Source: Bacteroidota bacterium
GTDB taxonomy: Bacteria; Bacteroidota; Bacteroidia; Bacteroidales; VadinHA17
NCBI GenBank assembly: GCA_037127735.1
Contig: JBAXXU010000007.1
Location: forward strand, 1,023-65,022
DNA length: 64,000 bases
Direction: 5' to 3'
Shown: positions 25,589-60,624 of the stretch, piece by piece
Layout: each line of letters begins with the position of its first letter
Numbering within the stretch: position 1 is the first letter of the stretch
Program-made: the position numbers and the translations under genes
Notes under the pieces: model-generated
Databases searched by the model: none
Told to the model about the DNA's origin: nothing
The model's input: the letters and a program-made list of their open reading frames with translations, nothing else

Positions 25589-25593
25589 AACAC

Positions 25594-42960: not shown

Positions 42961-44145
42961 TCAGATATATTCAAAACTCACTTTCTTAAGCCATTTTTCT
43001 TCGAGCAACCGTGCAATCCGTTTTACCACGGTTCGTCTTATTTCAAGGTCAACGGGCAGGTTGGGATCCTGATGGGCGATGTTTATCCTTGTACCGATAA
43101 TGAAGTGAATCTCATCACTTTCCATAATAAGCCTCACTATCTTATCGGCTGGTCCTTTACCCAGCCTGACACTATTATTATATATTTTCAGTATTTCATT
43201 TACCTTCTGCAGAGTCAGTATCCCCTCAGTTACAAGATCAATTCCTTCAAGAAAACTTTCGGGAGGCAGCTCCGGATCTTCGAAGATAAGTTCATCAACG
43301 ATGGTCCTGTTCAACTCCCTCGCAACTATATCTGCCGTGGTGCCCCCGCAAAGAATTACTTTTCCTTTGTATCCCAAAACTTTTGCCCCCAGGTCTTTGT
43401 CTTTTTCCTTTTCGTAGGGAGGCCCGGTAGAGATAAGTAGTTTGCGCGGTTCGCGAAAATATATTGTTGCACAGCTTATATCGTCCCTCGCTTTATAACT
43501 GTCGTTTTTATGAGCCATTGTAACTATCTTTCCTGCAAGCATCATGGCAGAAATTGATGCTTCACTCGAAACGAGAGAAGCAGCATAGTTAGATAGATTC
43601 TCCCTTTCCCATCCGAATGGATATGCTTCACTGCCCATTCCACTCTGAGATACTCCATCAGAGCAAAAGATTATCCTGTCTTCTTTTTCAGGCATGAACG
43701 TGCAGGTTTTGAGAATTTTTCCGGAATGTTTGCCTTTTTCAAGCACAACTTTTTTCCAAACGGGATCAAATATCTGATTGCCTCTTAAAACAACTGTTGA
43801 GGGGTTGTCATATTCAAGTATGGTGGCCCGGCCACTGCTCTCTATGTCAATTATTGTGAAGGTGGAATAGCTGATTTTCCTTTCGCTGCATACAGGAAGG
43901 GTATTCATTATGATCTCTGCAATACGGTCAACCTCTTTATGTTCGCGGGTGAAATTTATGGCCATCGTTGCAGTGAGGGTAGCAAGAATATTTGCTTTCA
44001 CACCGTGACCCATACCATCAGATAAAACTGCAATAACCCTGTTTTCTTCTTTAATATAACGGTAAAGGAAGACATCACCGGAAATCCTCTCACCGTCATG
44101 ATTCCTCTGCTGGCTGTTTACCTCAATATAAAAGTTCCTGTTCAC
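42961..44145 (-). CDS. SpoIIE/PP2C-family protein phosphatase with a ~190-aa C-terminal extension
   Basis: GDVFLY...LSDGMGHG...FCSDGV metal-binding Asp motifs. Starts 6 nt after the hydS-PAS stop. Confidence 0.8.
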   Translation of the reverse strand: MNRNFYIEVNSQQRNHDGERISGDVFLYRYIKEENRVIAVLSDGMGHGVKANILATLTATMAINFTREHKEVDRIAEIIMNTLPVCSERKISYSTFTIIDIESSGRATILEYDNPSTVVLRGNQIFDPVWKKVVLEKGKHSGKILKTCTFMPEKEDRIIFCSDGVSQSGMGSEAYPFGWERENLSNYAASLVSSEASISAMMLAGKIVTMAHKNDSYKARDDISCATIYFREPRKLLISTGPPYEKEKDKDLGAKVLGYKGKVILCGGTTADIVARELNRTIVDELIFEDPELPPESFLEGIDLVTEGILTLQKVNEILKIYNNSVRLGKGPADKIVRLIMESDEIHFIIGTRINIAHQDPNLPVDLEIRRTVVKRIARLLEEKWLKKVSFEYI

Positions 44146-44151: not shown

Positions 44152-46038
44152 TTATTTCAGTTTGTTATTCTGACTTACCTTTTTTGTTTTGTACGACTCT
44201 ATTATCGAGTTGAGCATCTGTTCCGTTTCAGAAGCGCCTTCCCCAAGCAGAAACCCGATCTTTTGAACCATTTCAAGGTTTTTATCAATTACCTCGCTTA
44301 CCCTGTTTGTCACCTCTTCACCCTGTACCTCAGGCGAGTACAGGTCGCGGATTATTGCTCCGCACATCTTGTTCTTTTTTATTGGAAATATGGAGATATT
44401 CAGCATCTTATCTTCAAAATGGACATCTTTGCTCACAACAGGTTCGTCTTCTTTAATAACAAATGTAAACATGTTATACACATTGAATGGGATGAGCGTC
44501 TTTATATCGGCGCCTGCCAGCCCGGGGATAACATCTGATATTGCTTTGGCATCTTCCCCGATTATATTTATGAAGCTTTGATTTGAATGGAGTATTTTCA
44601 GAAAATTATCAACGATAACAACGCCTGTCGGGAGTTTTTCGAGCATGTTATTCATCATATCAGAAGCGCTTTGTGCTATCTCCTTTTCCCTGCGGGCAAG
44701 CTCTTCTGATTCCTTGAGGGCTTTTTTTGTTTCAGCCAGCTTCCTGTTTGTCTGCCTGAGTGTTTCAATGTACTCCTGTTTGTTACGCAGGTTGAAGGTA
44801 TGGCACATTTCAGGAACTGCAAGCCCTTTTGCAACAGTTGATGCAAAATCGCGGCACGAAAGGTATCCACAAGCGCCACAGTTTAATTCTTCATCAGGAT
44901 TATTTTTACCCACGATTTTAAGTACCTCATTTATTGCCTCTTCAGGAGGTTCCGGGATTCTCTGATCGTCAGGGGAAAAGGTTCTGGAAAAATCGAGTTT
45001 CGACCATTTTTCCATACTTTTTTGCCAGAGTACTTTATCAATTTTTTCAACCCTTTTTTCTGCATACTTCCGTACCAGGGCCCTTCTTCTGAACCGTTCA
45101 TTGTGATGCTCCATGGCCGGACCCAACAGGCATCCGTGACAGAAAAACAAGTTGAAATGGTGTTTTATTGTATCAATGTATTTATCGAAATCATTTATTG
45201 CTTCAAGGATTTCCTCCTTTCCTGAAGCAGTTATAACACTGCTCGAAACCATGTCGCGCTTAATTCCTCCTGCCTGTATTATCCCGGCCGGAAGAGGGTA
45301 GAGGGCGCCCCAGTTGCCATAAGGAGGATCAAAATCCGACAACTTAACGAGCCGTTCCTGGATATTGAACTCATCAAAAAGCTGCCTCAACTCAATAAAT
45401 GTAAGAACTCCGTCAACCAGTTTGCCTGAACTATAAATCAGCGATTCGTCCTTTGCATCGAGGCATGGTCCTATCTGAATCGTTGCAACATCAGCCCCGT
45501 ACAACTCCTTCACTACCATTGCGGTAGCAATCATAGGAGAGACTAATGGGGCAAGGTTTGGTACCAGGTCCGGATAAAATTTCTCCACCATCTTAACAAT
45601 TGAAGGGCAATTGGCAGTTATGTAATACTTGCCTTCTGCTTTTGAGAAAAGCTTTGCATAGGCCGCGGCAATCAGATCAACTCCGAATGAATCTTCATGA
45701 ACATAATCAAATCCCAGCGACCTGATCATTCCCACGAACTTCCTGTAATCAGTTATGTCGTCAAACTCCGAAGCAATACTCGGTTCAATCAGGGCTGCAG
45801 TTTTCCTGCCTGATGACAGTAATTTCTTCACTTCTTCCCTCGAGTCGCGGAACCCGATAGCATGAGGGGTGCATGCAACATAGCATAAACCGCAACCTAT
45901 ACACCTGTCAGGAAGTATGAACGGATGCTCCTTCTGAGGCTTAACCTCTATGGCATTGACAGGGCAGACACGAACGCAGGAATATGAATTTCTGCATTTA
46001 TCGTCATTTATGAACAGAACAGGTTTTATGTCCGTCAT
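44152..46038 (-). CDS. hydS: sensory-type [FeFe]-hydrogenase (HydS-like) fused to a PAS domain
   Basis: N-terminal ferredoxin motifs. H-cluster motifs ANCPS, GPCLDAKDE and FFCHGCLLGP. Extra Cx2Cx4Cx16C (CGACGYLSC...EMC). Coiled linker and a PAS-like C-terminus. Confidence 0.8.
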   Translation of the reverse strand: MTDIKPVLFINDDKCRNSYSCVRVCPVNAIEVKPQKEHPFILPDRCIGCGLCYVACTPHAIGFRDSREEVKKLLSSGRKTAALIEPSIASEFDDITDYRKFVGMIRSLGFDYVHEDSFGVDLIAAAYAKLFSKAEGKYYITANCPSIVKMVEKFYPDLVPNLAPLVSPMIATAMVVKELYGADVATIQIGPCLDAKDESLIYSSGKLVDGVLTFIELRQLFDEFNIQERLVKLSDFDPPYGNWGALYPLPAGIIQAGGIKRDMVSSSVITASGKEEILEAINDFDKYIDTIKHHFNLFFCHGCLLGPAMEHHNERFRRRALVRKYAEKRVEKIDKVLWQKSMEKWSKLDFSRTFSPDDQRIPEPPEEAINEVLKIVGKNNPDEELNCGACGYLSCRDFASTVAKGLAVPEMCHTFNLRNKQEYIETLRQTNRKLAETKKALKESEELARREKEIAQSASDMMNNMLEKLPTGVVIVDNFLKILHSNQSFINIIGEDAKAISDVIPGLAGADIKTLIPFNVYNMFTFVIKEDEPVVSKDVHFEDKMLNISIFPIKKNKMCGAIIRDLYSPEVQGEEVTNRVSEVIDKNLEMVQKIGFLLGEGASETEQMLNSIIESYKTKKVSQNNKLK

Positions 46039-46057: not shown

Positions 46058-46309
46058 TTATAATCTGGCAAATTCTTTTTCGAGGATACCTTCAATTTTT
46101 GAGATGGTAACACCTTCAGTTGTTATCCCGTTAATATTCAGATTCGGGCCATTACTGCAATTGCCCATGCAACGCGCTCCTTTGAAAATGACTTTGTCGT
46201 CGAGATGGTTTTTCCTCAGGTATTCCCGTATGAACATTACTACATCCTTGTTACCTCTTGAAAAACAGGAACTGCCGAGACAAATTTGCATTTCAATTCT
46301 TTGAGCCAT
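46058..46309 (-). CDS. thioredoxin-like [2Fe-2S] ferredoxin
   Basis: 83 aa. CLGSSCF ... CMGNCSNGP four-Cys pattern, as in NuoE-type domains. Confidence 0.7.
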   Translation of the reverse strand: MAQRIEMQICLGSSCFSRGNKDVVMFIREYLRKNHLDDKVIFKGARCMGNCSNGPNLNINGITTEGVTISKIEGILEKEFARL

Positions 46310-46527: not shown

Positions 46528-46572
46528 TTTTATTGTTAATAAAATAACAATGTTTATTTATTAACAATAAAA
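46528..46572. promoter_or_regulatory. perfect 15-bp inverted repeat containing two overlapping Rex-box-like operators
   Basis: TTTTATTGTTAATAA (46528-46542) and TTATTAACAATAAAA (46558-46572). TTGTTAA-TAAA-ATAACAA (46533-46550) matches 13/14 half-site positions of TTGTTAAnnnnTTAACAA. ATGTTTA-TTTA-TTAACAA (46550-46567) matches 12/14. Confidence 0.45.
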
Positions 46573-46613: not shown

Positions 46614-47084
46614 ATGGATAAGGATCTTGACATAATTCTCAAAAAGTACAAACAGGGGAAACGGGAGGATCTTATTCCTCTTCTTCAGGAAATACAGGAA
46701 GATCTTGGTCATCTTTCTGAAGATGCAATTATAAAGGTCGGAAGTTTTTTAGGGCTAAGCACAACTAAGATCTATGGCCTTGCTACATTTTACGACAGGT
46801 TCAGGTTCATCCCTCGCGGAAAAATTCAGATAAAGATTTGCCATGGCACTTCATGTTTTCTTAACGGATCGCAGGCTATCATTAATAAAATAAAAGAAGA
46901 GACAGGTGTAATGCCCGGCCAAACTACCAGAGATGGCAATTTCAGCTATGAGATTGTATCATGTATGGGTGGCTGCCATAATGGCCCGTTGATAAATGTT
47001 AACGAAGAATTTCAGATACATATTAAGGCTGAACAACTGCCTGAACTTATTAAAAAACTTAAGTACGTTATTGAAAGCGACTAA
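46614..47084 (+). CDS. hydC: NuoE-like [2Fe-2S] subunit of an NAD(P)-linked [FeFe]-hydrogenase
   Basis: ICHGTSCFLNG ... VSCMGGCHNGP. Confidence 0.85.
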   Translation: MDKDLDIILKKYKQGKREDLIPLLQEIQEDLGHLSEDAIIKVGSFLGLSTTKIYGLATFYDRFRFIPRGKIQIKICHGTSCFLNGSQAIINKIKEETGVMPGQTTRDGNFSYEIVSCMGGCHNGPLINVNEEFQIHIKAEQLPELIKKLKYVIESD

Positions 47085-47102: not shown

Positions 47103-49037
47103 ATGGAAGATCTGAAGACATTTCTTATTAACAAAGTCCTGTTATCTGAATCCGATGCCTTACCTCCGGAAACCGAAAAGGTATTACAGCAAATCAGGCG
47201 TGAAAAACCCAATGAACCTGTGATCTTTGTCTCATCCGGCACAAGCAGTGTTATTGCCGGATCGGAAAAAACATATTCTGCAATTGATACATATATTATT
47301 GAAAATGAACCATCAGCGCGATTAGTGCGCGTCGGGTGTGCCGGACCGGCTAATTTTGAACCTCTGGTCTGCATTCAGATACCCGGCAAAAACAAACTGT
47401 TCTTCAGAAATATTACAGAGGAGAAGGTTGAACCGCTTCTCAACGGTGTTTTTCATAACGATATTAATGAAGAAGACCTTGCCGGTCAGTCCGGAACGAA
47501 AGGATTTGAATTATGGCCGGGAATTCCTTTTATGGATCAGTTGCCCTTCTTTGCCAACCAGAAAAGGGTGGTACTCGGCAATTGCGGTTGTTACGACCCG
47601 GAAAGTATTGAAGAATACATCGCCCGGGGAGGTTACAGGGCATATATTAAAACAATCACACATTATACTTTTGAAGAGGTATGTGATATCGTGGAAAGGA
47701 GCGGTCTGAGAGGTAGAAGCGGGGGAGGATATCTGACAGGACTAAAATGGAAACATGCTCTTAACACAACTTCAAATGCAAGATATCTTATATGCAACGC
47801 GAAGGAGAGCGACCCCGGAGCGTTCACCGACAGAACCATTCTTGAAAGCGACCCCCATCGTCTTGTTGAAGGTATTGCAATAGCTTCGTATGCCATAGGC
47901 GCTTCAAATGCCATAGTATTTATCAGATCGGGTTCCGATCATGCAAGAAACAGACTTCAGAAAGCAATCAACAAGGCCAGGGATTATGGCCTTTTCGGAC
48001 ATAATATTTTTTCAAGCGGATACAACCTCGATATTGTGATCCGCAAAGAACCCGGCGCCTTTGTATGCGGTGAAGAAACTGCTCTGATAAACTCTCTCGA
48101 AGGAAAAAGAGGAATGCCCAGGCTTAAACCTCCTTATCCCACCACTGCAGGATTATTCGGCAAGCCAACTGTGATTAACAATGTTGAGACTCTGATGAAT
48201 GTCCCGCTTATAATGCAGAACGGACCGGAATGGTTCAGAACGCTTGGAACAGAAAACAGCCCCGGCACTAAAATTTTCGCTGTGGCAGGAAAAGGGCGCA
48301 TGTCGGGCGTGGTGGAGGTTGAAATGGGAACAACCATAAGGACAATACTGGAAGATATTGCCGATGGCATACGTGAGGGAAAAGAGTTTAAAGCCATACA
48401 GCTGGGCGGAGCTTCAGGCTCTTTTATTACCAGCGAAAACCTCGATATTGCAATAGATTATGACGATCTCAAAGAAAAAGGGATAGGAATGGGCGCCGGA
48501 GGATTCGTGATAATTGATGAGAACACCTGTATGGTTGACCTCGTGAGATATTATATGGAATTTATCCGTAATGAGAGTTGTGGCAAATGTATTCCATGTC
48601 GCGAAGGTACAGGCAGGATGCTCGAGATACTTGAGAGCGTGATAAGAAAACCTTTGAATGAGGAGTCGGGAACAACCCTTGAACGGTTTAAAGGGGTAAT
48701 GCAACTCGAAACAATTGCATCGGTGATGAAAGACACCTCCCTTTGCGGCCTTGGCCAGGCAGCTCCAAACCCTTTTATAAGCGCACTAAAGAACTTCAGG
48801 GATGAGTTTGAAGAACATATATTCGACAGGAAATGCCGTGCCAATATCTGCAGGGGATTAAGGTCATTCTCAATTGACGTGGATAAATGTACCGGATGTA
48901 CTGCATGTGCAGGCAAATGTCCGGTGAACGCGATTTATGGAACCCGCCTTCAGCCATTTTTTATTGTTGAGGAGAAATGTATCGGCTGTGGTATCTGTTT
49001 TGATATTTGTAAATTCAGTGCAATAACTGTTAAATAA
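47103..49037 (+). CDS. hydB: NuoF-like flavoprotein subunit (FMN, NAD(P)H, Fe-S) of an [FeFe]-hydrogenase
   Basis: GRSGGGYLTGLKW (FMN site), ESCGKCIPCREG, and C-terminal 2x CxxCxxCxxxCP (CTGCTACAGKCP, CIGCGICFDIC). Confidence 0.9.
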   Translation: MEDLKTFLINKVLLSESDALPPETEKVLQQIRREKPNEPVIFVSSGTSSVIAGSEKTYSAIDTYIIENEPSARLVRVGCAGPANFEPLVCIQIPGKNKLFFRNITEEKVEPLLNGVFHNDINEEDLAGQSGTKGFELWPGIPFMDQLPFFANQKRVVLGNCGCYDPESIEEYIARGGYRAYIKTITHYTFEEVCDIVERSGLRGRSGGGYLTGLKWKHALNTTSNARYLICNAKESDPGAFTDRTILESDPHRLVEGIAIASYAIGASNAIVFIRSGSDHARNRLQKAINKARDYGLFGHNIFSSGYNLDIVIRKEPGAFVCGEETALINSLEGKRGMPRLKPPYPTTAGLFGKPTVINNVETLMNVPLIMQNGPEWFRTLGTENSPGTKIFAVAGKGRMSGVVEVEMGTTIRTILEDIADGIREGKEFKAIQLGGASGSFITSENLDIAIDYDDLKEKGIGMGAGGFVIIDENTCMVDLVRYYMEFIRNESCGKCIPCREGTGRMLEILESVIRKPLNEESGTTLERFKGVMQLETIASVMKDTSLCGLGQAAPNPFISALKNFRDEFEEHIFDRKCRANICRGLRSFSIDVDKCTGCTACAGKCPVNAIYGTRLQPFFIVEEKCIGCGICFDICKFSAITVK

Positions 49038-49042: not shown

Positions 49043-50764
49043 ATGGTTTTTACAATACAGGTAAATAATAAGAAGATCAAAGCTGAAAAGGGCGAAACAA
49101 TCCTTTCGGCCCTTAACCGTAACGGGATTATTATTCCTACCCTCTGCAGGATGAAAGAGTTTACTCCCACCGGCGCCTGCAGGATGTGTGTTGTTGAAGT
49201 GGAAGGCCGCGACCGTCTGGTTACAGCCTGCTCGCAGCCTGTTGAAGAATGGATGAAAATAAAAACCCATTCCCCGAGAGTTATAATGGCAAGAAAAACA
49301 ATCGTGGAACTGCTTCTTTCAAACCATCCCGATGATTGTCTTTATTGCGACCGGAACCTCAACTGTGAACTGCAGCGCCTTTCGGAAGAACTTAATATAA
49401 GAGAACGCCGTATACGCGGGAAAAAAATAAAACCGCGCCTCGACCAGTCGAGCCCTGCAATTGTAAGGGAACTCTCGAAATGCATCCTTTGCGGACGATG
49501 TGTAAGAGTCTGCGAAGAGGTAATAACAGCAACCTCACTCGATTTTATTAATAAAGGAAGAGAGACTCACGTCGGGGCAGCTATGGACAGGGATTTCAAC
49601 TTCTCGAGCTGTGTACATTGCGGCCAGTGCGTACTGGTATGTCCAACAGGAGCCCTTCACGAAAAACATAATATAACTGAAGTCCAGGATTACCTCAATA
49701 AACCGGATATTGTAAAAATAATTCAGTACTCTCCACTGGTAACTGTCGGGATAGCTGAAGAACTGGGCATGAGGTATAACAGGGAAGTTGATAAGGTACT
49801 AAATGCCGTTCTTCGTAAAATTGGATTTGATAAGGTGTTTACAACAGGTACGGGAACTGATGTTTGTATATCTGAGATCACCGGTCAGCTATCTGTAAAA
49901 ATTGAAAGTAAAAACGATACTCCATTATATATTTCTGCTTGCCCGGCATGGGTTAAATACGCCGAACAGTTCATGCCTTCGGTTATTCCCCGGCTGTCAA
50001 CCGTTAAATCGCCTCAACAGATTACAGGCGTATTGATTAAAACACTCGTTGCCGGCCAGCTGCGCGTAAAACCGGAAGAGATTTTTTCAGTTTCTGTAAC
50101 TCCCTGTATAGCAATGAAATTTGAAGCCCGCCGCGATGGAATGATGCGGAAGGGGATCAGCGATGTTGATTCTGTTCTGACTGTCAGGGAACTGGCACGG
50201 CTCATAAGGTTATATGGCATTGATGTTACAAATATTGACCATGAGCCGGCCGATGAACCTTTAACAGGGAGAAGCTCCGTTGCAGTACTTGCTGAAGTAT
50301 CTGGGGGATTGGCTGAAGGGGTGATACGATCGTTCCATTTTCAAAAACTTAAGAAAGAGGCTGAAAAACAGCTTTTTAAAAAATTGCGTTCAGGAGGATC
50401 TTTCAGGGAAGCGTCATTTCAGATAGACGAAATTGAGGTAAATGTTGCAGTTGTGGATGGCCTTACCGGTCTCGAAAAGTTGAGAACATCAATTGCCGCC
50501 GGCAAGAAATTTGACCTTATTGAGGTGATGGCTTGCCCGGGGGGGTGTGTGCATGGAGCCGGACTCTCTTTCAGCGCTTCAAAGGATGAGATAAAAAGCA
50601 GATCGAAACTTATATATCATGCCGATGAAACTGAAGCAATAAATCTGCCCTGCAAATCACCTGCCCTGATTAATCTCAATGAAAAATTATTAAAGGAGAA
50701 TAGTGATATTGCAGATAAGAAGATATTCTATACTCATTTTGAAAAGAGAAATGTATTGTTGTGA
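49043..50764 (+). CDS. hydA: [FeFe]-hydrogenase large subunit, M3 architecture, non-canonical H-cluster motifs
   Basis: 2Fe-2S (CRMKEF..GACRMC), HPDDCLYCDRNLNC and two ferredoxin motifs. H-domain motifs are YISACPAW, VTPCIAMKFE and EVMACPGGCVHGAG. Confidence 0.85.
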   Translation: MVFTIQVNNKKIKAEKGETILSALNRNGIIIPTLCRMKEFTPTGACRMCVVEVEGRDRLVTACSQPVEEWMKIKTHSPRVIMARKTIVELLLSNHPDDCLYCDRNLNCELQRLSEELNIRERRIRGKKIKPRLDQSSPAIVRELSKCILCGRCVRVCEEVITATSLDFINKGRETHVGAAMDRDFNFSSCVHCGQCVLVCPTGALHEKHNITEVQDYLNKPDIVKIIQYSPLVTVGIAEELGMRYNREVDKVLNAVLRKIGFDKVFTTGTGTDVCISEITGQLSVKIESKNDTPLYISACPAWVKYAEQFMPSVIPRLSTVKSPQQITGVLIKTLVAGQLRVKPEEIFSVSVTPCIAMKFEARRDGMMRKGISDVDSVLTVRELARLIRLYGIDVTNIDHEPADEPLTGRSSVAVLAEVSGGLAEGVIRSFHFQKLKKEAEKQLFKKLRSGGSFREASFQIDEIEVNVAVVDGLTGLEKLRTSIAAGKKFDLIEVMACPGGCVHGAGLSFSASKDEIKSRSKLIYHADETEAINLPCKSPALINLNEKLLKENSDIADKKIFYTHFEKRNVLL

Positions 50765-50825: not shown

Positions 50826-52787
50826 ATGTTGGTTTACACAATAAAAGAACTTTGCCGCACATGCTACACCTGCGTCAGGGAATGTCCTGCCAAAGCAATC
50901 CGTATTGTTGGTGGTCAGGCTGAGGTGATTGATGAAAGGTGCATTGCCTGCGGTAACTGTACAAAAGTATGCAGCCAGGGCGCCAAGGTCTTTCTGAACA
51001 CAACCGACAGGGTGGCGAAACTTCTCGAAAACGATTCGAAAGTTGCTGCTATTATTGCTCCGAGCTTTCCGGCAGAATTCTCTGATATACCCGATCACCA
51101 CGTTCTTACCGGAATGATAAAGTCACTTGGATTTGAATATGTTGCAGAGGTTGCTTTTGGCGCTGACCTTGTTGCTGACAAATATAAAAAACTTGTTTCG
51201 GAAGATAAAGATTTTTATATCTCATCTGATTGTCCTTCAATAGTTAATTACATAAAATTCTTTCACCCGGCTCTTGTCGCAAATCTGGCTCCCATAGTTT
51301 CTCCCATGGTGGCAATGAGCAGGGTTATTCGTGAAAAATACGGCAAGGATACAAGTATTGTTTTCATAGGCCCGTGTGTCGCGAAGAAAGCTGAAAGCGC
51401 TGAAATAGACGAGGCAATAACATTCACGGAATTGAGGGATATGTTTGCTGAAAGAGGTATCGCCCCGGAGAACAGTATACCGGTTGATTTTGACCAGCCT
51501 GTTGGCGGAAGAGGCGCCATATTCCCTGTTGCACGCGGATTGCTTCAGACCGCTAAAATCAGCGATAACGCTATTACCGGAAATATAATCGCGGCTGAAG
51601 GCAGGATTGATTTTCAGGGAGCACTGAAGGAATTTGAAGCAGGACTGATAAAAAACCAGCACATGGAACTGCTATGTTGCGAAGGCTGCATCATGGGGCC
51701 GGGATTATCGAAAAGCGGGAAGCAGTATAACAGACGCTCGCTCGTAAGCTCTTATGCCAACAGTAAGATGCAGAATATCGATTCTGACAGCTGGCAAAGA
51801 TCATTCGATGAATATGCTGAACTCGACTTATCGTTTCGTCATAAACCTGAAGATCACAGGATTGAATTGCTCGACGAAAATGATGTATCTGATGAACTGA
51901 GTAAGATGGGCAAGAAGACGAAGAAGGACCAGCTCGACTGTGGCGCCTGCGGTTACGAAAGTTGCGTGGAGCATGCAATAGCAATAAAGAAGGGCCTTGC
52001 CGAAGTGGAGATGTGTCTGCCATATACTATTGAAAAACTGCATAAATCAGTAAATGATCTTGCATTGTCAAACGAGAAACTATCCTCGATGAAGCAGGCT
52101 CTCAAACAATCGGAAAAGCTTGCTCACATGGGCCAGCTTTCAGCCGGTATTGCCCATGAATTGAATAATCCCCTTGGAGTTGTAATAATGTACAGCAACA
52201 TTCTTCTGGAAGAATCATCCGAGGGCGATCCTGTCAGGGAAGATCTTAAACTTATAGTCGAACAGGCAGGCAGATGCAAGAAAATTGTTGCCGGCTTGCT
52301 CAATTTTGCAAGGAAAAACCAGGTTAACCATCAACCGGTAAGTATAAAGGAACTTGTTAATCATAGTCTTGAAAGTCTTATAATTCCTGAAGAGATAAAA
52401 ATCAGTATATCTGATCTGACAACCAATCCGGAGGCAATGCTAGATGCGGAACAGATGATGCAGGTTCTTACCAACCTCGTGAAGAACGCTATTGACGCTA
52501 TGCCGGATGGGGGAGCCATAGATATTAAGCTTGAAGATACTCTCGGTGATGTTATTATTACGATAAGTGACACAGGGACAGGTATTAAGGAAGAAGACAG
52601 GGCTAAGATTTTCGAACCATTCTTTACCACTAAAAGCATTGGAAAAGGAACCGGACTGGGGCTCGCTACCGCGTATGGCGTAGTTAAAATGCATAAGGGA
52701 CAGATTATTGCTGAGTCAAACAACGATTTGGCCAAAGGGCCGACAGGGACAAGTTTTAAGATTATGTTACCAAGAAGAAAGGAATAG
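50826..52787 (+). CDS. hydS: sensory-type [FeFe]-hydrogenase domain fused directly to a histidine kinase
   Basis: CRTCYTCVRECP and CIACGNCTKVC. H-cluster motifs SSDCPS, GPCVAKKAE and LLCCEGCIMGPG. CGACGYESC...EMC. Then H-box AHELNNPL, N-box NLVKNAIDA, DTGTGI and GTGLGL. Confidence 0.8.
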   Translation: MLVYTIKELCRTCYTCVRECPAKAIRIVGGQAEVIDERCIACGNCTKVCSQGAKVFLNTTDRVAKLLENDSKVAAIIAPSFPAEFSDIPDHHVLTGMIKSLGFEYVAEVAFGADLVADKYKKLVSEDKDFYISSDCPSIVNYIKFFHPALVANLAPIVSPMVAMSRVIREKYGKDTSIVFIGPCVAKKAESAEIDEAITFTELRDMFAERGIAPENSIPVDFDQPVGGRGAIFPVARGLLQTAKISDNAITGNIIAAEGRIDFQGALKEFEAGLIKNQHMELLCCEGCIMGPGLSKSGKQYNRRSLVSSYANSKMQNIDSDSWQRSFDEYAELDLSFRHKPEDHRIELLDENDVSDELSKMGKKTKKDQLDCGACGYESCVEHAIAIKKGLAEVEMCLPYTIEKLHKSVNDLALSNEKLSSMKQALKQSEKLAHMGQLSAGIAHELNNPLGVVIMYSNILLEESSEGDPVREDLKLIVEQAGRCKKIVAGLLNFARKNQVNHQPVSIKELVNHSLESLIIPEEIKISISDLTTNPEAMLDAEQMMQVLTNLVKNAIDAMPDGGAIDIKLEDTLGDVIITISDTGTGIKEEDRAKIFEPFFTTKSIGKGTGLGLATAYGVVKMHKGQIIAESNNDLAKGPTGTSFKIMLPRRKE

Positions 52788-52868: not shown

Positions 52869-52950
52869 TAACCCAGCACCAATGTTAATAAATTAACACC
52901 AGATAATATATATCATATTTACTGTTTGATTTAACTTCTTTTATTTATAA

Positions 52951-53124: not shown

Positions 53125-53520
53125 ATGAAGAAAAGTGATATTACCATACTTGTTGCTGATGATGATCCGGATTATCTTTTTCAGACAGTATTTAATCTCG
53201 GGAAGGCAGGTTACAAGACTGTGGCAGTAGAGAGCCAGGCAGAGGCAGAATCGGTAATTGCCCGTTTCAAACCTCACCTCGCAATATTCGACCTGATGAT
53301 GGAGAGCGACGACAGTGGATTTATATTATGTTACAAGATGAAAAGAAAATATCCTGATGTACCTGTAATTCTGGCAACTGCAGTATCGCACGAAACAGGA
53401 TTGTCTTTTAGTATTGATTCAGAACAGGAAAAGTCGTGGATCAGAGCCGACAGATATCTTGAAAAAGGTATCAGGCCCGAGCAGCTTGACCAGGAGGTTA
53501 TGAAACTGTTAAAACTTTAA
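53125..53520 (+). CDS. stand-alone response-regulator receiver domain
   Basis: ILVADDDPD ... AIFDLMM ... 131 aa, no output domain. Confidence 0.85.
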   Translation: MKKSDITILVADDDPDYLFQTVFNLGKAGYKTVAVESQAEAESVIARFKPHLAIFDLMMESDDSGFILCYKMKRKYPDVPVILATAVSHETGLSFSIDSEQEKSWIRADRYLEKGIRPEQLDQEVMKLLKL

Positions 53521-53521: not shown

Positions 53522-54658
53522 ATGGCTGTTTTAAAAGTACTTGTTATTGATGATGAACCAGGGATACGTTCAGGTGTTTCACGGATACTGAATAACTTTC
53601 ATGTAACATATCCTTTTATGGATGAGGATTATACATTTGAAGTTACTGAAGCCGGAACAGGCGAAGACGGTATCGCGATCATTGAAAGCAGTATGCCGGA
53701 TATCCTTTTACTCGATAATAAGCTACCCGGAATACAGGGAGTTGATGTTCTGGAATATATCAGGAAGAGAAATTATGATATTGTTGTCGCGATGATCACA
53801 TCTTATGCCTCACTCGACGTGGCAATAAGGGCCACCCGCGATGGAGCCATCGATTTTATCCCGAAACCATTTACCCCCCAGGAACTTAAATCGAGCATTG
53901 AAAATATCACTAAACAGCAGTATCTTAAAAGGATAACTCATAAAATGAAGCAGGAGGGAAAGAAGATACGGTACCAGTTTCTTTCTGTCCTTTCACATGA
54001 ATTGAAAGCTCCGCTGAATGTACTGGAAGGGTATCTCAGGATGATGCAGGAAAAACAGGCGGGAGACAGGATTGAGGATTATACAACACCAATAGAAAGA
54101 TCGCTTCAACGCATACAAGGTATGAGGAGCCTTATTATGGATCTTCTTGATTTTACAAAAATACGGCTAGAAAGAAAAGAGGAAAAGATACAGGAGGTCA
54201 ACCTTGCAGAAGTAGCCTCCGAGGCAATAGTTACAGTCCAGCCCTATGCTATCCAAATGGATGTCAGTATAAACCTGGATGTTAGATCCGATGCAATTAT
54301 AATGGCTGATCCTGATGATATGGAAATCGTTTTTAATAATCTCATCTCGAATGCAGTCAAATATAATAAAATAGGGGGGAAAGCAGAAATTACTATCAAT
54401 AGTTCCGATAGCGAAGCAATTCTTATCTTTTCCGATACAGGGATAGGCATAACAAAAAATGACACGGAAAATTTGTTTGCCGAGTTTGTAAGGATAAAGA
54501 ACGAAAAAACAAGAAATATATCAGGAAGCGGACTTGGCCTGTCAATTGTTAAGAAAGTTGTTGAACTTTACCATGGAACTATAAATGTTGATAGCACACC
54601 CGATGTAGGAACAGTATTTACAATCAGATTACCAAAAAAAGCAATAACCACCCCCTGA
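53522..54658 (+). CDS. hybrid receiver-histidine kinase
   Basis: VLVIDDEPG...LLLDNKLPG receiver. H-box LSHELKAPL. NLISNAVKY, DTGIGI and GSGLGLSI. Confidence 0.85.
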   Translation: MAVLKVLVIDDEPGIRSGVSRILNNFHVTYPFMDEDYTFEVTEAGTGEDGIAIIESSMPDILLLDNKLPGIQGVDVLEYIRKRNYDIVVAMITSYASLDVAIRATRDGAIDFIPKPFTPQELKSSIENITKQQYLKRITHKMKQEGKKIRYQFLSVLSHELKAPLNVLEGYLRMMQEKQAGDRIEDYTTPIERSLQRIQGMRSLIMDLLDFTKIRLERKEEKIQEVNLAEVASEAIVTVQPYAIQMDVSINLDVRSDAIIMADPDDMEIVFNNLISNAVKYNKIGGKAEITINSSDSEAILIFSDTGIGITKNDTENLFAEFVRIKNEKTRNISGSGLGLSIVKKVVELYHGTINVDSTPDVGTVFTIRLPKKAITTP

Positions 54659-54664: not shown

Positions 54665-55291
54665 ATGACTAAATTACCCGGAAAAACTGTAGAAAGGCTA
54701 AGCGAGTACAGAAGGACGCTTCTCGAATGTCTTAACGAAAAAAGAAACTTCATATTTTCTCACGATCTGGCTGCCCGTCTTCATATTACAGCAGTGCAGG
54801 TCAGACGCGACCTCATGCTGATCGGCTATTCCAGCGTTCTCAGAAAGGGATACGATGTGAGGGAGCTGATTGATATTATCGGGAAGATCATTGATTCTGA
54901 AGAGAGCATGAATGTTGCCATAATCGGGATTGGAAACCTGGGAAGAGCCCTGGCAGGATATTTCAAAGGGAAACGGTCAAAACTTAACCTTGTGGCATCA
55001 TTTGATAATGATCCGCAGAAAGTCAATAAGGTTATTTCGGGGGTGAAATGTTATCCTTACATTGATATCGAAAGGATGATCAAAGAGCTTGATATCCGGA
55101 TAGCGATACTTACTGTTTCACCGGATTTCGCGAGGGAGATTGCTGAGGAGACTGTCCGCTTCGGGATAAAGGGTATTCTCAATTTTACGACTATCCCTTT
55201 AAACGTCCCTTCAGGTGTCTATCTCGAAGAATATGATATGATCACCTCTATTGAAAAAGTTGCATATTTTGTTAAAGAGAATAAAATTTAG
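54665..55291 (+). CDS. rex: redox-sensing transcriptional repressor Rex
   Basis: TVERLSEYRRTL...VQVRRDLMLIGY winged-helix part, then GIGNLGRALAGY Rossmann part. Confidence 0.85.
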   Translation: MTKLPGKTVERLSEYRRTLLECLNEKRNFIFSHDLAARLHITAVQVRRDLMLIGYSSVLRKGYDVRELIDIIGKIIDSEESMNVAIIGIGNLGRALAGYFKGKRSKLNLVASFDNDPQKVNKVISGVKCYPYIDIERMIKELDIRIAILTVSPDFAREIAEETVRFGIKGILNFTTIPLNVPSGVYLEEYDMITSIEKVAYFVKENKI

Positions 55292-55306: not shown

Positions 55307-56227
55307 ATGAAGATATTCAGAAGCTTTGAAGATGCAAAGGGTATAAGAAATCCTGTCGTGACAACCGGATCGTTCGATGGGGTTCATATCGGGCATAAAA
55401 CCATACTTAACCGTCTTAAGATGCTTGCAGAAAAGTGCGACGGTGAATCGGTTCTCATCACCTTCGATCCGCATCCCCGGAAAGTACTTTACCCTGAAAC
55501 AGCCGGAAAAGATCTGAAACTGATTAATTCACAGGAAGAAAAACTGGAACTCCTCGAAAAGGCCGGCCTTAATAACCTTATCATCATAGAATTCACGAGT
55601 GAGTTCTCAAAAGTGACAAGCGAACAGTTTGTCAGAGACTTTCTTCATGGAATGTTGCATGCAAAAGTTGTTGTTGTTGGGTTTAACCATCATTTCGGAT
55701 TCAATAAAGAAGGCGATTATAAACAACTCTGGAAGTGGCAGGGAATATATGATTTTGAAGCCGAAGAGATACCGGAACAAGAGGTTCAGCACGAAACAGT
55801 AAGTTCGACAAAAATACGCCAGGCAATAAGCGAGGGTTATATTCAACGTGCAAATGCCTACCTCGATCATTATTATATTGTTATGGGAAAGCCTGAAAAA
55901 TATTCCTCCGATGAGGCAGTTGGCCTGCCCACAATGTTAAAAATTCCTTTGACAGAAGAGTGTAAGCTTCTTCCTTCACAGGGGATTTATGCAGTCTCTG
56001 TTGAAAGCGGACTTCTTTATTCAAAAGGAATGGCAATAATTCACAATAAACCCGAAGATAAACCTGAAGTTCTTTTAAATATTTTTGACAACCTGAACAT
56101 TCCTGCCGACCAGAATATTACCCTTTTTTTTCATAAGAAAATACATGGCGCTGTTAATCTGTCAGATAGTAAATACGCGGGTAAAATTAACTATGCAAAA
56201 GAGGAGATAACAGAACTTATTTACTGA
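55307..56227 (+). CDS. ribF: bifunctional riboflavin kinase / FAD synthetase
   Basis: TGSFDGVHIGH. C-terminal kinase part has VSSTKIR. Confidence 0.85.
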   Translation: MKIFRSFEDAKGIRNPVVTTGSFDGVHIGHKTILNRLKMLAEKCDGESVLITFDPHPRKVLYPETAGKDLKLINSQEEKLELLEKAGLNNLIIIEFTSEFSKVTSEQFVRDFLHGMLHAKVVVVGFNHHFGFNKEGDYKQLWKWQGIYDFEAEEIPEQEVQHETVSSTKIRQAISEGYIQRANAYLDHYYIVMGKPEKYSSDEAVGLPTMLKIPLTEECKLLPSQGIYAVSVESGLLYSKGMAIIHNKPEDKPEVLLNIFDNLNIPADQNITLFFHKKIHGAVNLSDSKYAGKINYAKEEITELIY

Positions 56228-56302: not shown

Positions 56303-57727
56303 ATGAGGTTTACTCCTGAAAAACTGACCATCCCCGATCAACGGATGAAGCCATTCATTGATCCTGAAGAGATTTGGGGACTTATCAACAATACAAAGCC
56401 CGACAAACAGAGGGTGAGGGATGTCATTGCAAAATCGCTCGATAAACAAAGGCTCACGATGGAGGAGACTGCAGTTCTCGTGAATGTTGTCGGTACCGAC
56501 CTGGCTGATGAGATCAAACAGGGGGCCCGCGAACTGAAACAGAGAGTTTATGGTAACCGGATAGTGCTTTTTGCCCCGCTCTATGTAGGAAACAGGTGTA
56601 TAAATAACTGCAAATATTGCGGTTTCAGGACTTCAAATGCCGATGCTGTAAGGAAAACATTGAGCGACAATGAGATCATAAGCGAGGTGGAGGCACTGGA
56701 GGATAACGGACAAAAAAGGCTGATCCTTGTATATGGCGAACACCCCGATTACTCACCTGAATATATAGCCCATACAGTTAAGTTGGTGTATGGCGTCAAA
56801 AAGGGCCATGGCGAAATCAGAAGAGTAAATATCAATGCCGCACCACTCGACATTGAAGGTTTCAGAATTGTTGGCGAGTCAGGGATTGGCACCTACCAGG
56901 TCTTTCAGGAAACATACCACCCGGAGGCATATAAATGGTACCACCTGGGTGGGAAAAAGAAAGACTTTGAATGGCGACTGACATCGCTCGACAGAGCACA
57001 GGAAGCCGGAATTGATGATGTCGGAATCGGAGCCCTGTTCGGACTGTACGACTGGAGGTTTGAGGTACTGGGACTTGTTCGTCATACAAATCATCTTGAA
57101 GCATGTTATAATGTAGGCCCACATACTATATCTTTTCCGAGGATAAAAGATGCTGTAAGTCTGAACCTCGATAAGAAATTCGAGACAAGCGATGATGATT
57201 TTAAAAAACTTGTTGCTATCCTTCGTCTTGCTGTTCCATACACCGGATTGATCCTCACTGCACGTGAGACTCCCGATGTACGCCGGGAAGTATTGCAATT
57301 TGGTGTATCACAGATAGATGGTGGAACAAAACTTGAGCTTGGTTCTTATTCAGATTCAAAAAATGAAGAACAGAACCTTAACCGCGAGCAGTTTAAAATT
57401 AGCGATCCCCGTTCGCTGGCTGAAGTAATTGATGAGCTGCTCACGGACAATTATTTGCCATCATTTTGCACATCTTGCTACAGGATGGGACGCACCGGCG
57501 AACACTTCATGGAATTTTCAGTACCGGGTTTCATTAAAAGATTCTGCACACCCAATGCAATACTTACCCTTGCAGAATATATCTGCGACTATGGCCAGGG
57601 AGAGACTGTTAATAAGGGCTGGAAGGTAATTGTGAAGAACCTGGAAAAGCTCGAATCTGAAGTTGCCGTAAGTACCAGGGAAAAGATAGAAAGGATTAAG
57701 GCGGGGGAGAGAGACCTTTATTTTTGA
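56303..57727 (+). CDS. hydG: [FeFe]-hydrogenase H-cluster radical-SAM maturase HydG
   Basis: CINNCKYCGF (Cx3Cx2C) and the C-terminal auxiliary-cluster motif CTSCYRMGRTGEHFMEF...FCTPNA. Confidence 0.9.
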   Translation: MRFTPEKLTIPDQRMKPFIDPEEIWGLINNTKPDKQRVRDVIAKSLDKQRLTMEETAVLVNVVGTDLADEIKQGARELKQRVYGNRIVLFAPLYVGNRCINNCKYCGFRTSNADAVRKTLSDNEIISEVEALEDNGQKRLILVYGEHPDYSPEYIAHTVKLVYGVKKGHGEIRRVNINAAPLDIEGFRIVGESGIGTYQVFQETYHPEAYKWYHLGGKKKDFEWRLTSLDRAQEAGIDDVGIGALFGLYDWRFEVLGLVRHTNHLEACYNVGPHTISFPRIKDAVSLNLDKKFETSDDDFKKLVAILRLAVPYTGLILTARETPDVRREVLQFGVSQIDGGTKLELGSYSDSKNEEQNLNREQFKISDPRSLAEVIDELLTDNYLPSFCTSCYRMGRTGEHFMEFSVPGFIKRFCTPNAILTLAEYICDYGQGETVNKGWKVIVKNLEKLESEVAVSTREKIERIKAGERDLYF

Positions 57728-57863: not shown

Positions 57864-58388
57864 ATGATAAAAGTACTTGGTATTAAAATTATCGACAGGA
57901 TAAAAGAAGCCGGTCTAACACAGGAGATATTGTCGCGGCATGCTACCGTAATAACTACCCGACTGGGTTTTCATGAAGTGACTGATTCAGTCTGCAGCCG
58001 TGAGGCATATATCATTCTTCATCTTAATGGCGATCCGGCTGATACAGATAGACTTTCATCAGCGCTGGAAGGGATTGGGGGTATTGAGATCCGCGGGATG
58101 TCCTTTCCTTCTGAAAAGGAAACCCTGAATTTAAAGACAGTTAATGGCAATGTGGAAATACTTGGTATTCTTGTTGAAAGAAACCACGATGTAATTGTTT
58201 TAGTTCAGAAAATCCTAACGGCTTATGGCTGTAATATCCGTACCCGTCTCGGTGTTAATGAGCTCTTCTTTGGCGAACCGGCAGGGCTGATCATTCTCGA
58301 ATTAAAGGGAGATGAAAAGCAGCGTCTTCTTCTTGAAAAGGAACTGAAGGGACTAAAACATGTGCATGTCAGGACGATGGTGTTTTAG
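57864..58388 (+). CDS. tandem-duplicated TM1266-type (iron-only hydrogenase system regulator, ACT/NikR-C-like) protein
   Basis: Two ~85-aa halves share a pattern: VLGIKIIDR...VITTRLGFHE...YIILHLNG versus ILGILVERN...NIRTRLGVNE...LIILELKG. Adjacent to hydG. Confidence 0.6.
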   Translation: MIKVLGIKIIDRIKEAGLTQEILSRHATVITTRLGFHEVTDSVCSREAYIILHLNGDPADTDRLSSALEGIGGIEIRGMSFPSEKETLNLKTVNGNVEILGILVERNHDVIVLVQKILTAYGCNIRTRLGVNELFFGEPAGLIILELKGDEKQRLLLEKELKGLKHVHVRTMVF

Positions 58389-58656: not shown

Positions 58657-59055
58657 ATGACTGATAATGTTGATATAGATAAAATTTATAATCATTGGAT
58701 TAGTACATCTGATAAGGATCTTATTACAATGGTTCATCTTTATGATTCAAAAGATTATCATTGGTCATTATTTATTGGTCATGCTGTTGTTGAACGATTA
58801 TTAAAAGCTTCCGTTGTAAAACGAATTTCAGATCATGCTCCTTTTACGCATGACTTAACCAAATTAGCAAAACTTTCCGGATTGTTATTTTCTGAAGAGC
58901 AATTAGATTGGCTGGATACAATTTCAACTTTCAATATTAATGCAAGATACGATAGCTATAAAGAGGCATTTTACAGAAAATGTACTTTAGAGTTCACAAC
59001 GGAATGGATTGATAAAGTTAAAATTCTACAATCATGGATAAAGGAGAAGCTCTAA
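58657..59055 (+). CDS. HEPN-domain protein (toxin-like partner of the MNT gene)
   Basis: 132 aa helical protein with the HAPFTHDL region expected around the HEPN active site. Overlaps the next gene by 22 nt. Confidence 0.65.
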   Translation: MTDNVDIDKIYNHWISTSDKDLITMVHLYDSKDYHWSLFIGHAVVERLLKASVVKRISDHAPFTHDLTKLAKLSGLLFSEEQLDWLDTISTFNINARYDSYKEAFYRKCTLEFTTEWIDKVKILQSWIKEKL

Positions 59056-59351
59056 GAATAGCAGGGGATTATATTGATTCAATAAGCACAAAATATAATA
59101 TCAGACAGGCAATATTGTTTGGTTCTTTTGCAAAAGGTACCAATCATGATGATAGTGATATAGATATAGCGATAATAATTAATAATGTAGTTGATATTAT
59201 TGATACCCAAATAGATTTAATGAAACTTCGCAGGACAATTGATTTAAGAATAGAGCCCCATCCTTTTATGATTGGGGACTTTAATCAGAGCAACCCTGTT
59301 GTAAATGAAATATTAAAATACGGAATAGTAATAAATAGTAACGTGTCCTGA
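59034..59351 (+). CDS. minimal nucleotidyltransferase (MNT) domain protein
   Basis: GSFAKGTNHDDSDIDIAI (GSxxxGx5-6SDxDxx). Confidence 0.75.
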   Translation: MDKGEALRIAGDYIDSISTKYNIRQAILFGSFAKGTNHDDSDIDIAIIINNVVDIIDTQIDLMKLRRTIDLRIEPHPFMIGDFNQSNPVVNEILKYGIVINSNVS

Positions 59352-59370
59352 TCGAAAATCTTTGACAATA

Positions 59371-59412
59371 ACCCGCAGCCTCGCACCCAGAACCCAGAAC
59401 CCGGCACCACAT
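59371..59412 (+). repeat. heptanucleotide tract downstream of the MNT gene
   Basis: ACCCGCA GCCTCGC ACCCAGA ACCCAGA ACCCGGC ACCACAT in one register. Confidence 0.75.
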
Positions 59413-59433
59413 TATAGTTGTTGGTGATTTTTG

Positions 59434-59586
59434 CTATTTCCAATAATTTTCAACGGCATAAAGTGGCAAATTTGTTAACCAATCATCTCTTCTATAATCA
59501 GACATGGAGGTTCTTATAGATATCAATGGTTTACGGTCTTTTGAGTTTTTCCAATTAGTCAGTTTTTGAAATTGAAATCGTTCCAT
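59434..59586 (-). pseudogene. 50-codon remnant resembling the N-terminus of a COG1373/DUF4143 AAA ATPase
   Basis: MERFQFQKLTNWKNSKDRKPLISIRTS... The family pattern (L..W....RKPLIL.G.RQVGKT) is followed as far as RKPLI and then lost. Stop after 50 aa. Confidence 0.3.
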
Positions 59587-60608: not shown

Positions 60609-60624
60609 GATTTAAACTGTTTAA

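Follow-up and report, generated by a model that had tools for sequence, protein, structure and literature searches.

The stretch of DNA analysed here, a window of 64,000 nucleotides from a Bacteroidota bacterium (GenBank assembly GCA_037127735.1, contig JBAXXU010000007.1, positions 1,023 to 65,022 of the forward strand), carries at positions 49043..50764 of its plus strand a hydA gene whose product, an M3-type [FeFe]-hydrogenase-like subunit, keeps all four cysteines of the catalytic H-cluster in an otherwise widely altered pocket. We refer to this protein as the variant HydA. The reading that we favour, with a probability of roughly 40%, casts it as the H2-site subunit of a Bfu-type HydABC complex of Bacteroidales that would be controlled by Rex and by dedicated sensors, with the H-cluster held, protons passing along an alternative relay, and turnover being slow or biased. 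The variant HydA would thus still bind the H-cluster and make or consume H2, and the complex as a whole would serve as a redox valve under the control of Rex and HydS. Protons would bypass the path C299-E279-S319-E282-R286 (numbering of the Clostridium pasteurianum enzyme CpI, used throughout) and enter by a new route.

The H-cluster pocket and a candidate proton relay

The hydA gene starts with an ATG located six bases past the stop codon of the upstream nuoF-like gene, and its open reading frame (ORF) of 573 codons is intact. Pfam detects Fer2_4, NADH-G_4Fe-4S_3 (the His-ligated [4Fe-4S] cluster), a 2x[4Fe-4S] module and Fe_hyd_lg_C (1.1e-66), the layout of an M3 enzyme; the same scan detected no PAS or other signalling domain and no C-terminal four-cysteine FeS motif. 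An earlier note, made from the DNA letters without database searches, had described an M3-type HydA of 573 residues placed behind nuoE and nuoF with its four H-cluster cysteines retained, and the ORF check, the Pfam scan and our alignments all agree with this description. The closest solved structures are T. kivui HydA1 (1.8e-126), A. woodii HydA1 and T. maritima HydA, followed by CpI, although identity to the characterised bifurcating HydA subunits amounts to 35-41% only. The variant HydA remains under the curated NCBIfam cut-offs for [FeFe]-hydrogenases (TIGR02512, 349.7 bits versus 405.95; NF040763 'group A6', 575.7 versus 765). An AlphaFold model built with 35 homologues has a mean predicted local distance difference test score (pLDDT) of 70-95 in most ten-residue blocks of the H-domain and of less than 50 at residues 363-372; the Fe-S domain is, as expected in a prediction lacking cofactors, poorly modelled. 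Foldseek matched this model best to T. kivui HydA1 and CpI, and at the level of a predicted structure the fold is thereby confirmed.

For the assignment of pocket positions, CpI was transcribed from HMMER alignments, its letters being verified at positions 279, 282, 286, 299, 300, 319, 353, 355, 358, 417, 497, 499 and 503, and the residue states were then taken from MAFFT alignments. The L1 motif YISACPAW aligns without a gap to FTSCCPGW, which confirms the earlier claim that the relay residue C299 has become Ala; the ligand C300 is kept. Aligned to VMPCTSKKFE, the L2 motif VTPCIAMKFE equally bears out the exchange of M353 for Thr and of K358 for Met, with K359 and E361 being kept. The L3 region reads MACPGGCVHGAGLS against MACHGGCVNGGGQP (or EVMACPGGCVHGAGLS against EVMACHGGCVNGGGQP); it retains both C499 and C503 and carries the substitutions N505H, G507A, Q509L and P510S, which turn GGGQP into GAGLS, so that the proposal of an altered L3 with intact H-cluster ligands holds as well. 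One motif had been mis-numbered: SGGLAEG was taken to mean the loss of Met497, but the Met of GGVMEA is CpI M424, which is indeed replaced by Ala, whereas M497 is the Met of E-V-M-A-C and is present in the variant HydA and in 174 of 175 relatives.

Remodelling also goes further than had been claimed, and includes the previously unreported changes E279I, E282Q, R286K, F417A, G418E, A230S and S232L. Kept, in turn, are E278, S319, S323, P324, Q325 and the pair G421-G422. The path from C299 to R286 is consequently broken at four of its five residues, with S319 alone staying in place, and, judged from these alignments, the canonical proton path is gone. Most of the substitutions shrink the side chain (C to A, F to A, M to T, and M424 to A), a pattern that would fit a pocket that is still occupied. 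We likewise count the retained M497, S323, P324, Q325, K359, E361 and G421-G422 in favour of an H-cluster hydrogenase.

Where could protons enter instead? The best candidate for a relay is Glu418, a residue invariably acidic in the clade of the variant HydA, which would sit beside Ala417 in the space vacated by F417; in TmHydS, the position equivalent to F417 has been described as very close to the amine of the azadithiolate (ADT) ligand. Among representative homologues, an acidic residue at position 418 occurs in 18 of 47 sequences that lack Cys299 and in one of 75 that have it (Fisher p = 4e-8), and this association persists when the clade under study is collapsed to a single entry (12/41 versus 1/75, p = 1e-5). 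A different solution is found in TamHydS, whose relay residue E252 corresponds in the alignment to a Val in enzymes of group A. This Val is probably CpI V423, in which case a Glu423 present in a sister lineage of the variant HydA (P0123) would stand at the E252 position. We considered a relay of the TamHydS type for the variant HydA too and rejected it, as residue 423 is Leu in this protein and Leu, Met or Ile across its clade.

The expectation of slow or biased turnover, much below that of prototypical enzymes and similar to that of HydS-type enzymes, rests on the loss of C299 together with the changes of K358 to Met and M353 to Thr. Substitution of C299 abolishes or severely impairs prototypical enzymes, with Asp as the exception, yet TmHydS, which naturally carries Ala at this position, is far more active than CpI with the C299A exchange.

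Conservation within the clade and its sister lineages

Residue frequencies were determined from an alignment of 175 distinct relatives. Met358, Lys359 and Glu361 are present in 100% of them, and position 418 is Glu in 99% and otherwise Asp. Thr353 (98%, the remainder Ser), Ser230 (97%), Gln282 (95%), Ala417 (94%, the remainder Ser) and His505 (89%) are nearly as constant; Ile279 accounts for 86%, the rest being mostly Leu or Val and in two sequences Thr, and position 286 is Lys or Arg. At position 299, Ala is found in 90% and Val, Ser or Thr in the remainder, but never Cys. The 16 ligands of the accessory clusters and C300, C355, C499 and C503 are conserved in 100% of the 175 sequences, and in L3 the residues E495, M497, C499 and C503 are kept, with GGGQP changed to GAGL(S/P). 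The mean frequency of the top residue is 0.964 for the Fe-S domain and 0.846 for the H-domain. Relative to the gene of the window, hydA has a median ratio of nonsynonymous to synonymous substitutions (dN/dS) of 0.047, and the neighbouring genes range from 0.025 to 0.041; because dS is saturated these ratios are rough, but all are far below 1. By this measure, hydA is under purifying selection, and since the pocket states are near-invariant in 175 sequences and dN/dS is about 0.05, the derived pocket is fixed rather than drifting. What has been fixed is a pocket that is enlarged and more acidic.

Genes of this kind are not confined to a single assembly. Our genome scan yielded 389 stretches that encode a relative, and all counts of loci given below refer to the best 80 of these, in which HydA is 76-88% identical. 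The best 120 database homologues among the matches listed are 84-100% identical to the variant HydA, and a Cys at position 299 was present in none of the 119 listed homologues with a readable L1 motif; indeed, none of our alignments places a Cys at the relay position. The 80 loci stem from fens, lake sediments, soils and digesters and are labelled as Bacteroidales, Bacteroidia, Bacteroidota or Rikenellaceae metagenome-assembled genomes (MAGs), with the exception of one contig of 4.4 kb (L061, JBLNAO010000350.1). This contig carries nuoE, nuoF and a hydA at 79% identity and was binned into a 'Chloroflexota' MAG, a label that is probably a binning error as all other loci belong to Bacteroidota.

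When homologues were clustered at 50% identity, the entire clade collapsed into one representative (P0121, 77% identity), and the next full-length matches reached 46% identity at most. In the alignment of representatives with lengths of 500-700 amino acids, 41 lack Cys299 if the clade under study is counted once, and these usually also lack E279, M353, K358 and F417; in the 71 with Cys299, canonical states prevail almost throughout. Six non-canonical or partly canonical representatives (P0123, P0125, P0126, P0127, P0133 and P0143), with 36-44% identity to the variant HydA, could be traced to their contigs, and those contigs that are long enough share an operon consisting of nuoE, nuoF, hydA, a gene for a HydS-histidine kinase fusion (hydS-HK), a response regulator gene, a gene for a response regulator/kinase hybrid, rex and ribF. 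In these sister operons, ribF is followed by genes for a metallo-beta-lactamase, a HydG-like radical-SAM protein and TM1266-like proteins; the radical-SAM gene (475 amino acids) is homologous to, and occupies the position of, hydG.

In a neighbour-joining distance tree, the clade under study falls on one side of a split together with the traced lineages and 13 other non-canonical representatives, while T. kivui, A. woodii, T. maritima, CpI and the 15 canonical representatives fall on the other side (bootstrap 98/100); TmHydS and TamHydS were not among the sequences of this tree. On the evidence of tree and operon, the variant HydA belongs to a separate Bacteroidales group with its own conserved operon, rather than being an outlier within the characterised A3 clade. 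All named members of the lineage are uncultured Bacteroidales or Bacteroidota, and their generic protein names at NCBI fit scores that lie under the curated cut-offs.

The sister group around P0126, whose contig carries the shared operon, bears on the ancestry of the variant HydA. Its 119 sequences are 55-92% identical to P0126 and have Cys at position 299 in 110 cases, Asp in seven and Asn in two; E279 is kept in 117/119 and M353 in 95/119, E282 is lost almost everywhere, and position 417 is Met, Leu or Thr. The retention of C299, E279 and mostly M353 points to a hydrogenase ancestry and role. All 119 sequences have Lys at position 423 (for example at L086, 10001-11722), which we take to be the site of the Glu from which the alternative proton path of TamHydS starts. 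Viewed across these alignments, the whole lineage has departed from the canonical proton path, with the clade of the variant HydA as its most derived branch.

Two further observations concern homologues at a greater distance. A. woodii HydA1 (7q4v) and many representatives (for instance P0124, P0140 and P0150) have an L1 motif of TSCSP, with Ser in place of the [4Fe-4S] ligand C300; this motif is common in A3-like representatives and has been mentioned in the literature for BfuA of Hydrogenedentota. Moreover, P0122, with 4122 amino acids, matches the variant HydA in seven separate stretches (897.6 bits, 30% identity) and is apparently a giant protein in which hydrogenase-like domains are repeated.

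The flavoprotein partner, the sensors and the Rex sites

The gene cluster surrounding hydA extends over about 15.5 kb, with a sensor module on the minus strand and the genes from nuoE to a TM1266-family gene on the plus strand. Directly in front of hydA lie the genes for a NuoE/HydC-type [2Fe-2S] subunit (46614..47084, plus strand; Pfam 2Fe-2S_thioredx 3.4e-43, with matches to NCBIfam NuoE families just under the cut-offs) and for a NuoF/HydB-type flavoprotein (47103..49037, plus strand; Pfam Complex1_51K 2.1e-41, NADH_4Fe-4S and Fer4). The earlier note had suggested a survey for hydA genes with an altered L1 next to nuoEF homologues, and such an arrangement recurs in the related loci, in which NuoE is encoded at 76/80 and NuoF at 78/80; among the 175 aligned relatives no Cys299 occurs.

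By its relationships, HydB is a B subunit of the Bfu type, as its nearest solved structures (6e-171 to 1.5e-155) are the B subunits of NiFe-HydABCSL, A. woodii HydABC, NfnABC, and T. maritima and T. kivui HydABC. It keeps the N3-type [4Fe-4S] motif, the bifurcating-type motif GAFVCGEE, and the C-terminal 2x[4Fe-4S] module (Fer4 at residues 590-641, with both Cys motifs conserved); its N-terminal Trx-like domain is devoid of the [2Fe-2S] cluster cysteines. Four motifs have been altered in a manner that is at least 90% conserved in the clade: GRGGAGFPTG to GRSGGGYLTG, NADEGDPGAFM to NAKESDPGAFT, RAEYP to RSGSD, and GGPSG to GGASG. The sister lineages vary at these flavin and NADH motif sites, too. 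The corresponding residues of T. thermophilus Nqo1 contact flavin mononucleotide (FMN) and the NADH ribose, and the nucleotide preference or specificity, or the binding of the flavin, may therefore be altered in this HydB. The residues proposed to mark bifurcating beta-subunits are Ala or Glu at 232, Met at 234, Phe at 367 and GGPSG, in the numbering of T. maritima HydB (Losey et al., 2020). With positions assigned to motifs by ourselves, HydB has Ala232 and Phe367 (in DPGAF and GAFVCGEE), Thr at 234, and GGASG.

On the other side of hydA, and on the same strand, hydS-HK follows directly (50826..52787, plus strand; Pfam Fe_hyd_lg_C 1.8e-42, FeS, HisKA and HATPase_c), separated in the clade most often by 18 nt, and the two genes often overlap in the sister lineages. 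Its product resembles group C1 sensors and has a pocket with D299, G353, K358 and F417 that is conserved in 65 loci; Asp is the sole substitution of C299 reported to leave prototypical enzymes active. A second putative sensory [FeFe]-hydrogenase of the HydS type (group C-like) is encoded by the divergent module (44152..46038, minus strand; Pfam Fe_hyd_lg_C 2.6e-35, FeS 3.3e-9). This HydS comprises a 2x[4Fe-4S] module, an H-domain, a C-terminal four-cysteine FeS motif and a PAS-like tail, for which all PAS matches stay below the Pfam threshold; its conserved pocket has N299, G353, A358 and K359 (with Lys only at Cys+4, as in the variant HydA), Y417 and F497. Both HydS proteins match the H-domain profile far more weakly than the variant HydA and differ from it in L1-L3; by sequence the variant HydA groups with HydA of HydABC, apart from the HydS-type proteins of its own locus.

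The divergent module is completed by a gene for a small Trx-like [2Fe-2S] ferredoxin of 83 amino acids (46058..46309, minus strand; Pfam 2Fe-2S_thioredx 1.8e-10; 63/80 loci) and, as its last gene, one for a phosphatase of the PP2C/SpoIIE type (42961..44145, minus strand; Pfam SpoIIE 3.8e-12), which is found in 62/80 loci with 77-93% identity. The order of ferredoxin, HydS and PP2C corresponds to the hfsA-hfsB-hfsC layout of the hfsABCD modules of Thermoanaerobacterium. Counted at an identity of at least about 75%, HydS-HK is present in about 72/80 and the divergent sensor module in 62-63/80 of the loci, with several absences being due to contig ends.

Downstream of hydS-HK, all on the plus strand, follow genes for a stand-alone receiver protein (53125..53520; Pfam Response_reg; 70/80 loci), a receiver/histidine kinase hybrid (53522..54658; Pfam Response_reg, HisKA and HATPase_c), a redox-sensing repressor of the Rex type (54665..55291; Pfam Put_DNA-bind_N and CoA_binding; 68/80 loci), the riboflavin kinase/FAD synthetase RibF (55307..56227; matches to NCBIfam RibF families, all under their cut-offs; 63/80 loci), the radical-SAM H-cluster maturase HydG (56303..57727; TIGR03955, 479 bits versus a cut-off of 312) and a CPF_0552/TM1266-family protein, a putative regulator of iron hydrogenase (57864..58388; NF052672, 130 bits versus 85, with TIGR03959 under its cut-off).

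Control by Rex is suggested by two overlapping Rex-box-like palindromes, TTGTTAATAAAATAACAA and ATGTTTATTTATTAACAA, at 46533..46567, about 84 and 67 nt upstream of nuoE. The Rex-box variant TTGTTAAnnnnTTAACAA, a form known from Clostridia, has six matches in the window against 0.93 expected, and of 76 related loci, 74 have at least one site of this type upstream of nuoE, at a background of 0.11 sites per kb; for the classic Rex box TTGTGAAnnnnTTCACAA, the window shows no enrichment. We also considered a third Rex-like palindrome, ATGTTAATAAATTAACAC, at 52882-52899 between hydS-HK and the receiver gene, and dismissed it as a part of the system, given that a comparable site exists in just 21 of 70 related loci. 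A scan for sigma-70 promoters and terminators returned counts equal to the shuffled expectation; Bacteroidota use another type of promoter. No formate dehydrogenase, NiFe-hydrogenase or other catalytic module for a third substrate was present between 42.9 and 58.4 kb or among the larger ORFs scanned in the first 21 kb of the window.

Beyond the cluster lies, at 58657-63042, an AT-rich stretch in which small ORFs stand in pairs; pairs resembling toxin-antitoxin systems were recognised there by eye only (HEPN/nucleotidyltransferase-like at 58657-59351, HigB/HigA-like at 59938-60608, RelE/ParE-like at 60785-61307 and HicA/HicB-like at 62624-63042). Five tRNA genes (Rfam) are clustered at 23844-25666.

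Relation to known systems and alternative readings

The variant complex shares with the HydABC enzymes of T. kivui, A. woodii and T. maritima (A3/BfuABC) the gene order nuoE-like, nuoF-like, hydA, an M3-type HydA, and a HydB with GAFVCGEE and the C-terminal 2x[4Fe-4S] module, and on this comparison the system descends from, and works like, the HydABC/Bfu hydrogenases. It differs from them in that HydA is devoid of C299, E279, E282, M353, K358 and F417 and falls into a separate clade, and in that the motifs of HydB are altered and its N-terminal [2Fe-2S] cysteines are missing. The adjacency of sensor and hydrogenase genes is itself a known arrangement, as genes for group C1/C3 sensors occur beside A3/Bfu hydrogenase genes, for example in Hydrogenedentota. 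In the BfuABC clusters of these bacteria the sensor genes adjoin an A3-type operon just as they do here, but the first Cys of TSCxP is kept and the second is Cys or Ser, whereas it is the first, the relay Cys, that the variant HydA loses. In the full-text literature we found no description of an A3-type HydA lacking the relay Cys, nor of this Bacteroidales operon, and coverage of that literature is incomplete, so that this is no proof of absence; likewise, a characterised clade of active enzymes with an SACP-type L1, into which the variant HydA might have been placed, was not found. A HydA of Bacteroides thetaiotaomicron annotated as 'A3' showed 0.22% of the activity of CrHydA1 after artificial maturation and is barely transcribed (about 4 TPM, transcripts per million). 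This observation is possibly related to the lineage described here; Bacteroides names do not appear among the matches listed for the variant HydA and its relatives.

A number of observations weigh against the reading of a catalytic subunit with a rerouted proton supply. K358 hydrogen-bonds the distal cyanide ligand of the [2Fe] subcluster, and this residue is Met in every member of the clade; taken together, K358M and G418E swap a positive for a negative charge, which could disfavour the binding of the anionic [2Fe] moiety. Glu418, which we propose as a candidate relay, lies in a loop between two helices of the model. Conservation is lower in the H-domain than in the Fe-S domain (0.846 versus 0.964), HydB deviates from the canonical flavin and NADH motifs, and the presence of HydG and of the Rex boxes is accounted for equally well by the sensors and by autoregulation of rex. 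Finally, positions 299, 353, 358 and 417 vary widely among the lineages that share the operon; an enzyme under selection for turnover would not usually show such variability, which is reminiscent of sensory enzymes.

Could the complex then be a signalling device? In such a device, a sensor-like H-cluster of low turnover would be connected by way of the Fe-S chain with a flavin site that has been remodelled, carry no metabolic flux, and report the H2 and redox state to the co-transcribed HydS-HK, the two-component proteins and the PP2C module. We consider this unlikely, but it is the alternative that survives best. The immediate succession of hydA and hydS-HK (18 nt apart in most clade members and overlapping in sisters) speaks for it, and so does the fact that at least one HydS sensor is always kept in the cluster. 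Both catalytic ends of the complex, the H-cluster pocket and the motifs of HydB, differ between lineages in which the Fe-S ligands are invariant. Furthermore, Ala299 and a hydroxyl residue at position 353 match patterns of groups C and D. The literature describes these sensory groups as devoid of the relay Cys as well as of the canonical path for protons, in line with the background given in the earlier note, with Ala299 occurring in about 43% of sensory enzymes.

The likeness to sensory enzymes is nevertheless partial. TmHydS (group C) and TamHydS (group D) share with the variant HydA an Ala in place of the relay Cys, the missing canonical path, and genetic linkage to signalling genes and an A-type hydrogenase operon, and M2e enzymes share the hydroxyl residue at 353. 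However, the sensory groups have M2e or M2f layouts with only the N-terminal 2x[4Fe-4S] module, a C-terminal Cx2Cx4Cx16C motif and, in group C, a PAS domain, whereas the variant HydA is of the M3 type and possesses neither a signalling domain nor this additional cluster. M497, kept in the variant HydA, gives way to Ser in TmHydS and to Leu in TamHydS; the residues hydrogen-bonded to [2Fe] are reported to be conserved in sensory enzymes, while the variant HydA loses K358; and the relay Glu E252 of TamHydS stands at the presumed position 423, where the variant HydA has Leu, its new Glu being at 418. It is also difficult to reconcile with a signalling role that two dedicated sensors are already present, which would render a third redundant, that these sensors would be left with no H2-metabolising target at the locus if HydABC were not their effector, that a sister group retains the catalytic Cys relay, and that a sensor function is not known for any complex of the bifurcation type. 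That this Bacteroidota HydABC lineage was converted from a high-flux hydrogenase into an integrator of redox and H2 signals, with both catalytic ends remodelled, its Fe-S wire strictly kept and in partnership with the co-translated H-cluster kinase, strikes us as improbable; if true, a signal-integrating HydABC would be the first case of a Bfu scaffold serving as a sensor.

Of similarly low probability, and less convincing than a signalling device, is the view that the variant HydA has no [2Fe] subcluster and holds the [4Fe-4S] cubane only. It would then be an electron-transfer subunit like HylA, and its complex would link NAD(P)H and ferredoxin with another partner, possibly the adjacent HydS-type protein. 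Precedents are HylA in HylABC-FdhF2 and the HydA without an H-cluster in NiFe-HydABCSL, and homologues without conserved L1-L3 motifs do serve as Bfu subunits. With HylA of Gottschalkia/Clostridium acidurici, the variant HydA shares NuoE/NuoF-like neighbours; the L1-L3 motifs of HylA are not conserved, and those of the variant HydA are altered with all Cys and M497 kept. The loss of K358 in every member, the loss of C299, E279, E282, M353 and F417, the changed GGGQP, and the scores under the curated cut-offs (575.7 versus 765; 349.7 versus 405.95) all fit this view. Moreover, P324 and Q325 are still present in two representatives (P0190 and P0230) that have lost the H-cluster cysteines, and the persistence of these two residues is consequently no proof of cofactor binding. 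Compared with HylA by description only, the variant HydA differs in keeping the four H-cluster cysteines, among them the bridging Cys503, and M497; its cluster has no formate dehydrogenase gene, and no NiFe or other catalytic module that might act as the partner, and the neighbouring genes encode H-cluster sensors and HydG. The cavity, moreover, appears enlarged and not filled, the new polar residues E418, T353 and S230 have been fixed around it, and sister lineages retain canonical relay residues.

Finally, a decaying pseudo-enzyme, or substitutions that are mere artefacts of assembly or sequencing, might be invoked as many residues essential in prototypical enzymes are altered together, but the intact ORF, identical states in 175 distinct sequences that stem from many assemblies independent of one another, a dN/dS of about 0.05, invariant Fe-S ligands and a conserved operon rule this out for practical purposes.

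Having weighed these alternatives, we retain as our tentative preference an H2-site subunit that holds its H-cluster and uses an alternative relay. The earlier description of a NuoE/NuoF-linked, A3-like HydA with sensor-type changes at the relay Cys and at position 353 agrees with both the alignments and the gene context. Its either-or interpretation, a flavin-coupled enzyme with another proton path or a sensor-like H-cluster wired to an NAD(P)H/ferredoxin module, keeps its core, but with M497 retained the pocket is no copy of that of TmHydS or TamHydS, and the HylA-like reading had to be added as a third.

How protons move in [FeFe]-hydrogenases without the Cys299 relay has yet to be settled for the sensory enzymes of groups C and D. 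Here, one orthologous operon offers a natural series in which Cys299 and E279 are kept in some branches and Asp, Asn, Ser or Ala stand at position 299 elsewhere, and in which new charged residues have appeared at position 418 (Glu, in the variant HydA) or 423 (Lys or Glu, in its sisters), so that alternative proton pathways could be tested by swaps between orthologues. There is also a practical side to these findings, as 'group A' or 'HndD' labels would count such genes among those of fermentative, electron-confurcating H2 producers. The genes occur in many uncultured Bacteroidales of peat, sediments and digesters, and their contribution to H2 catalysis is putative. The lineage provides a natural test case for how [FeFe]-hydrogenases move protons, or cease to do so.

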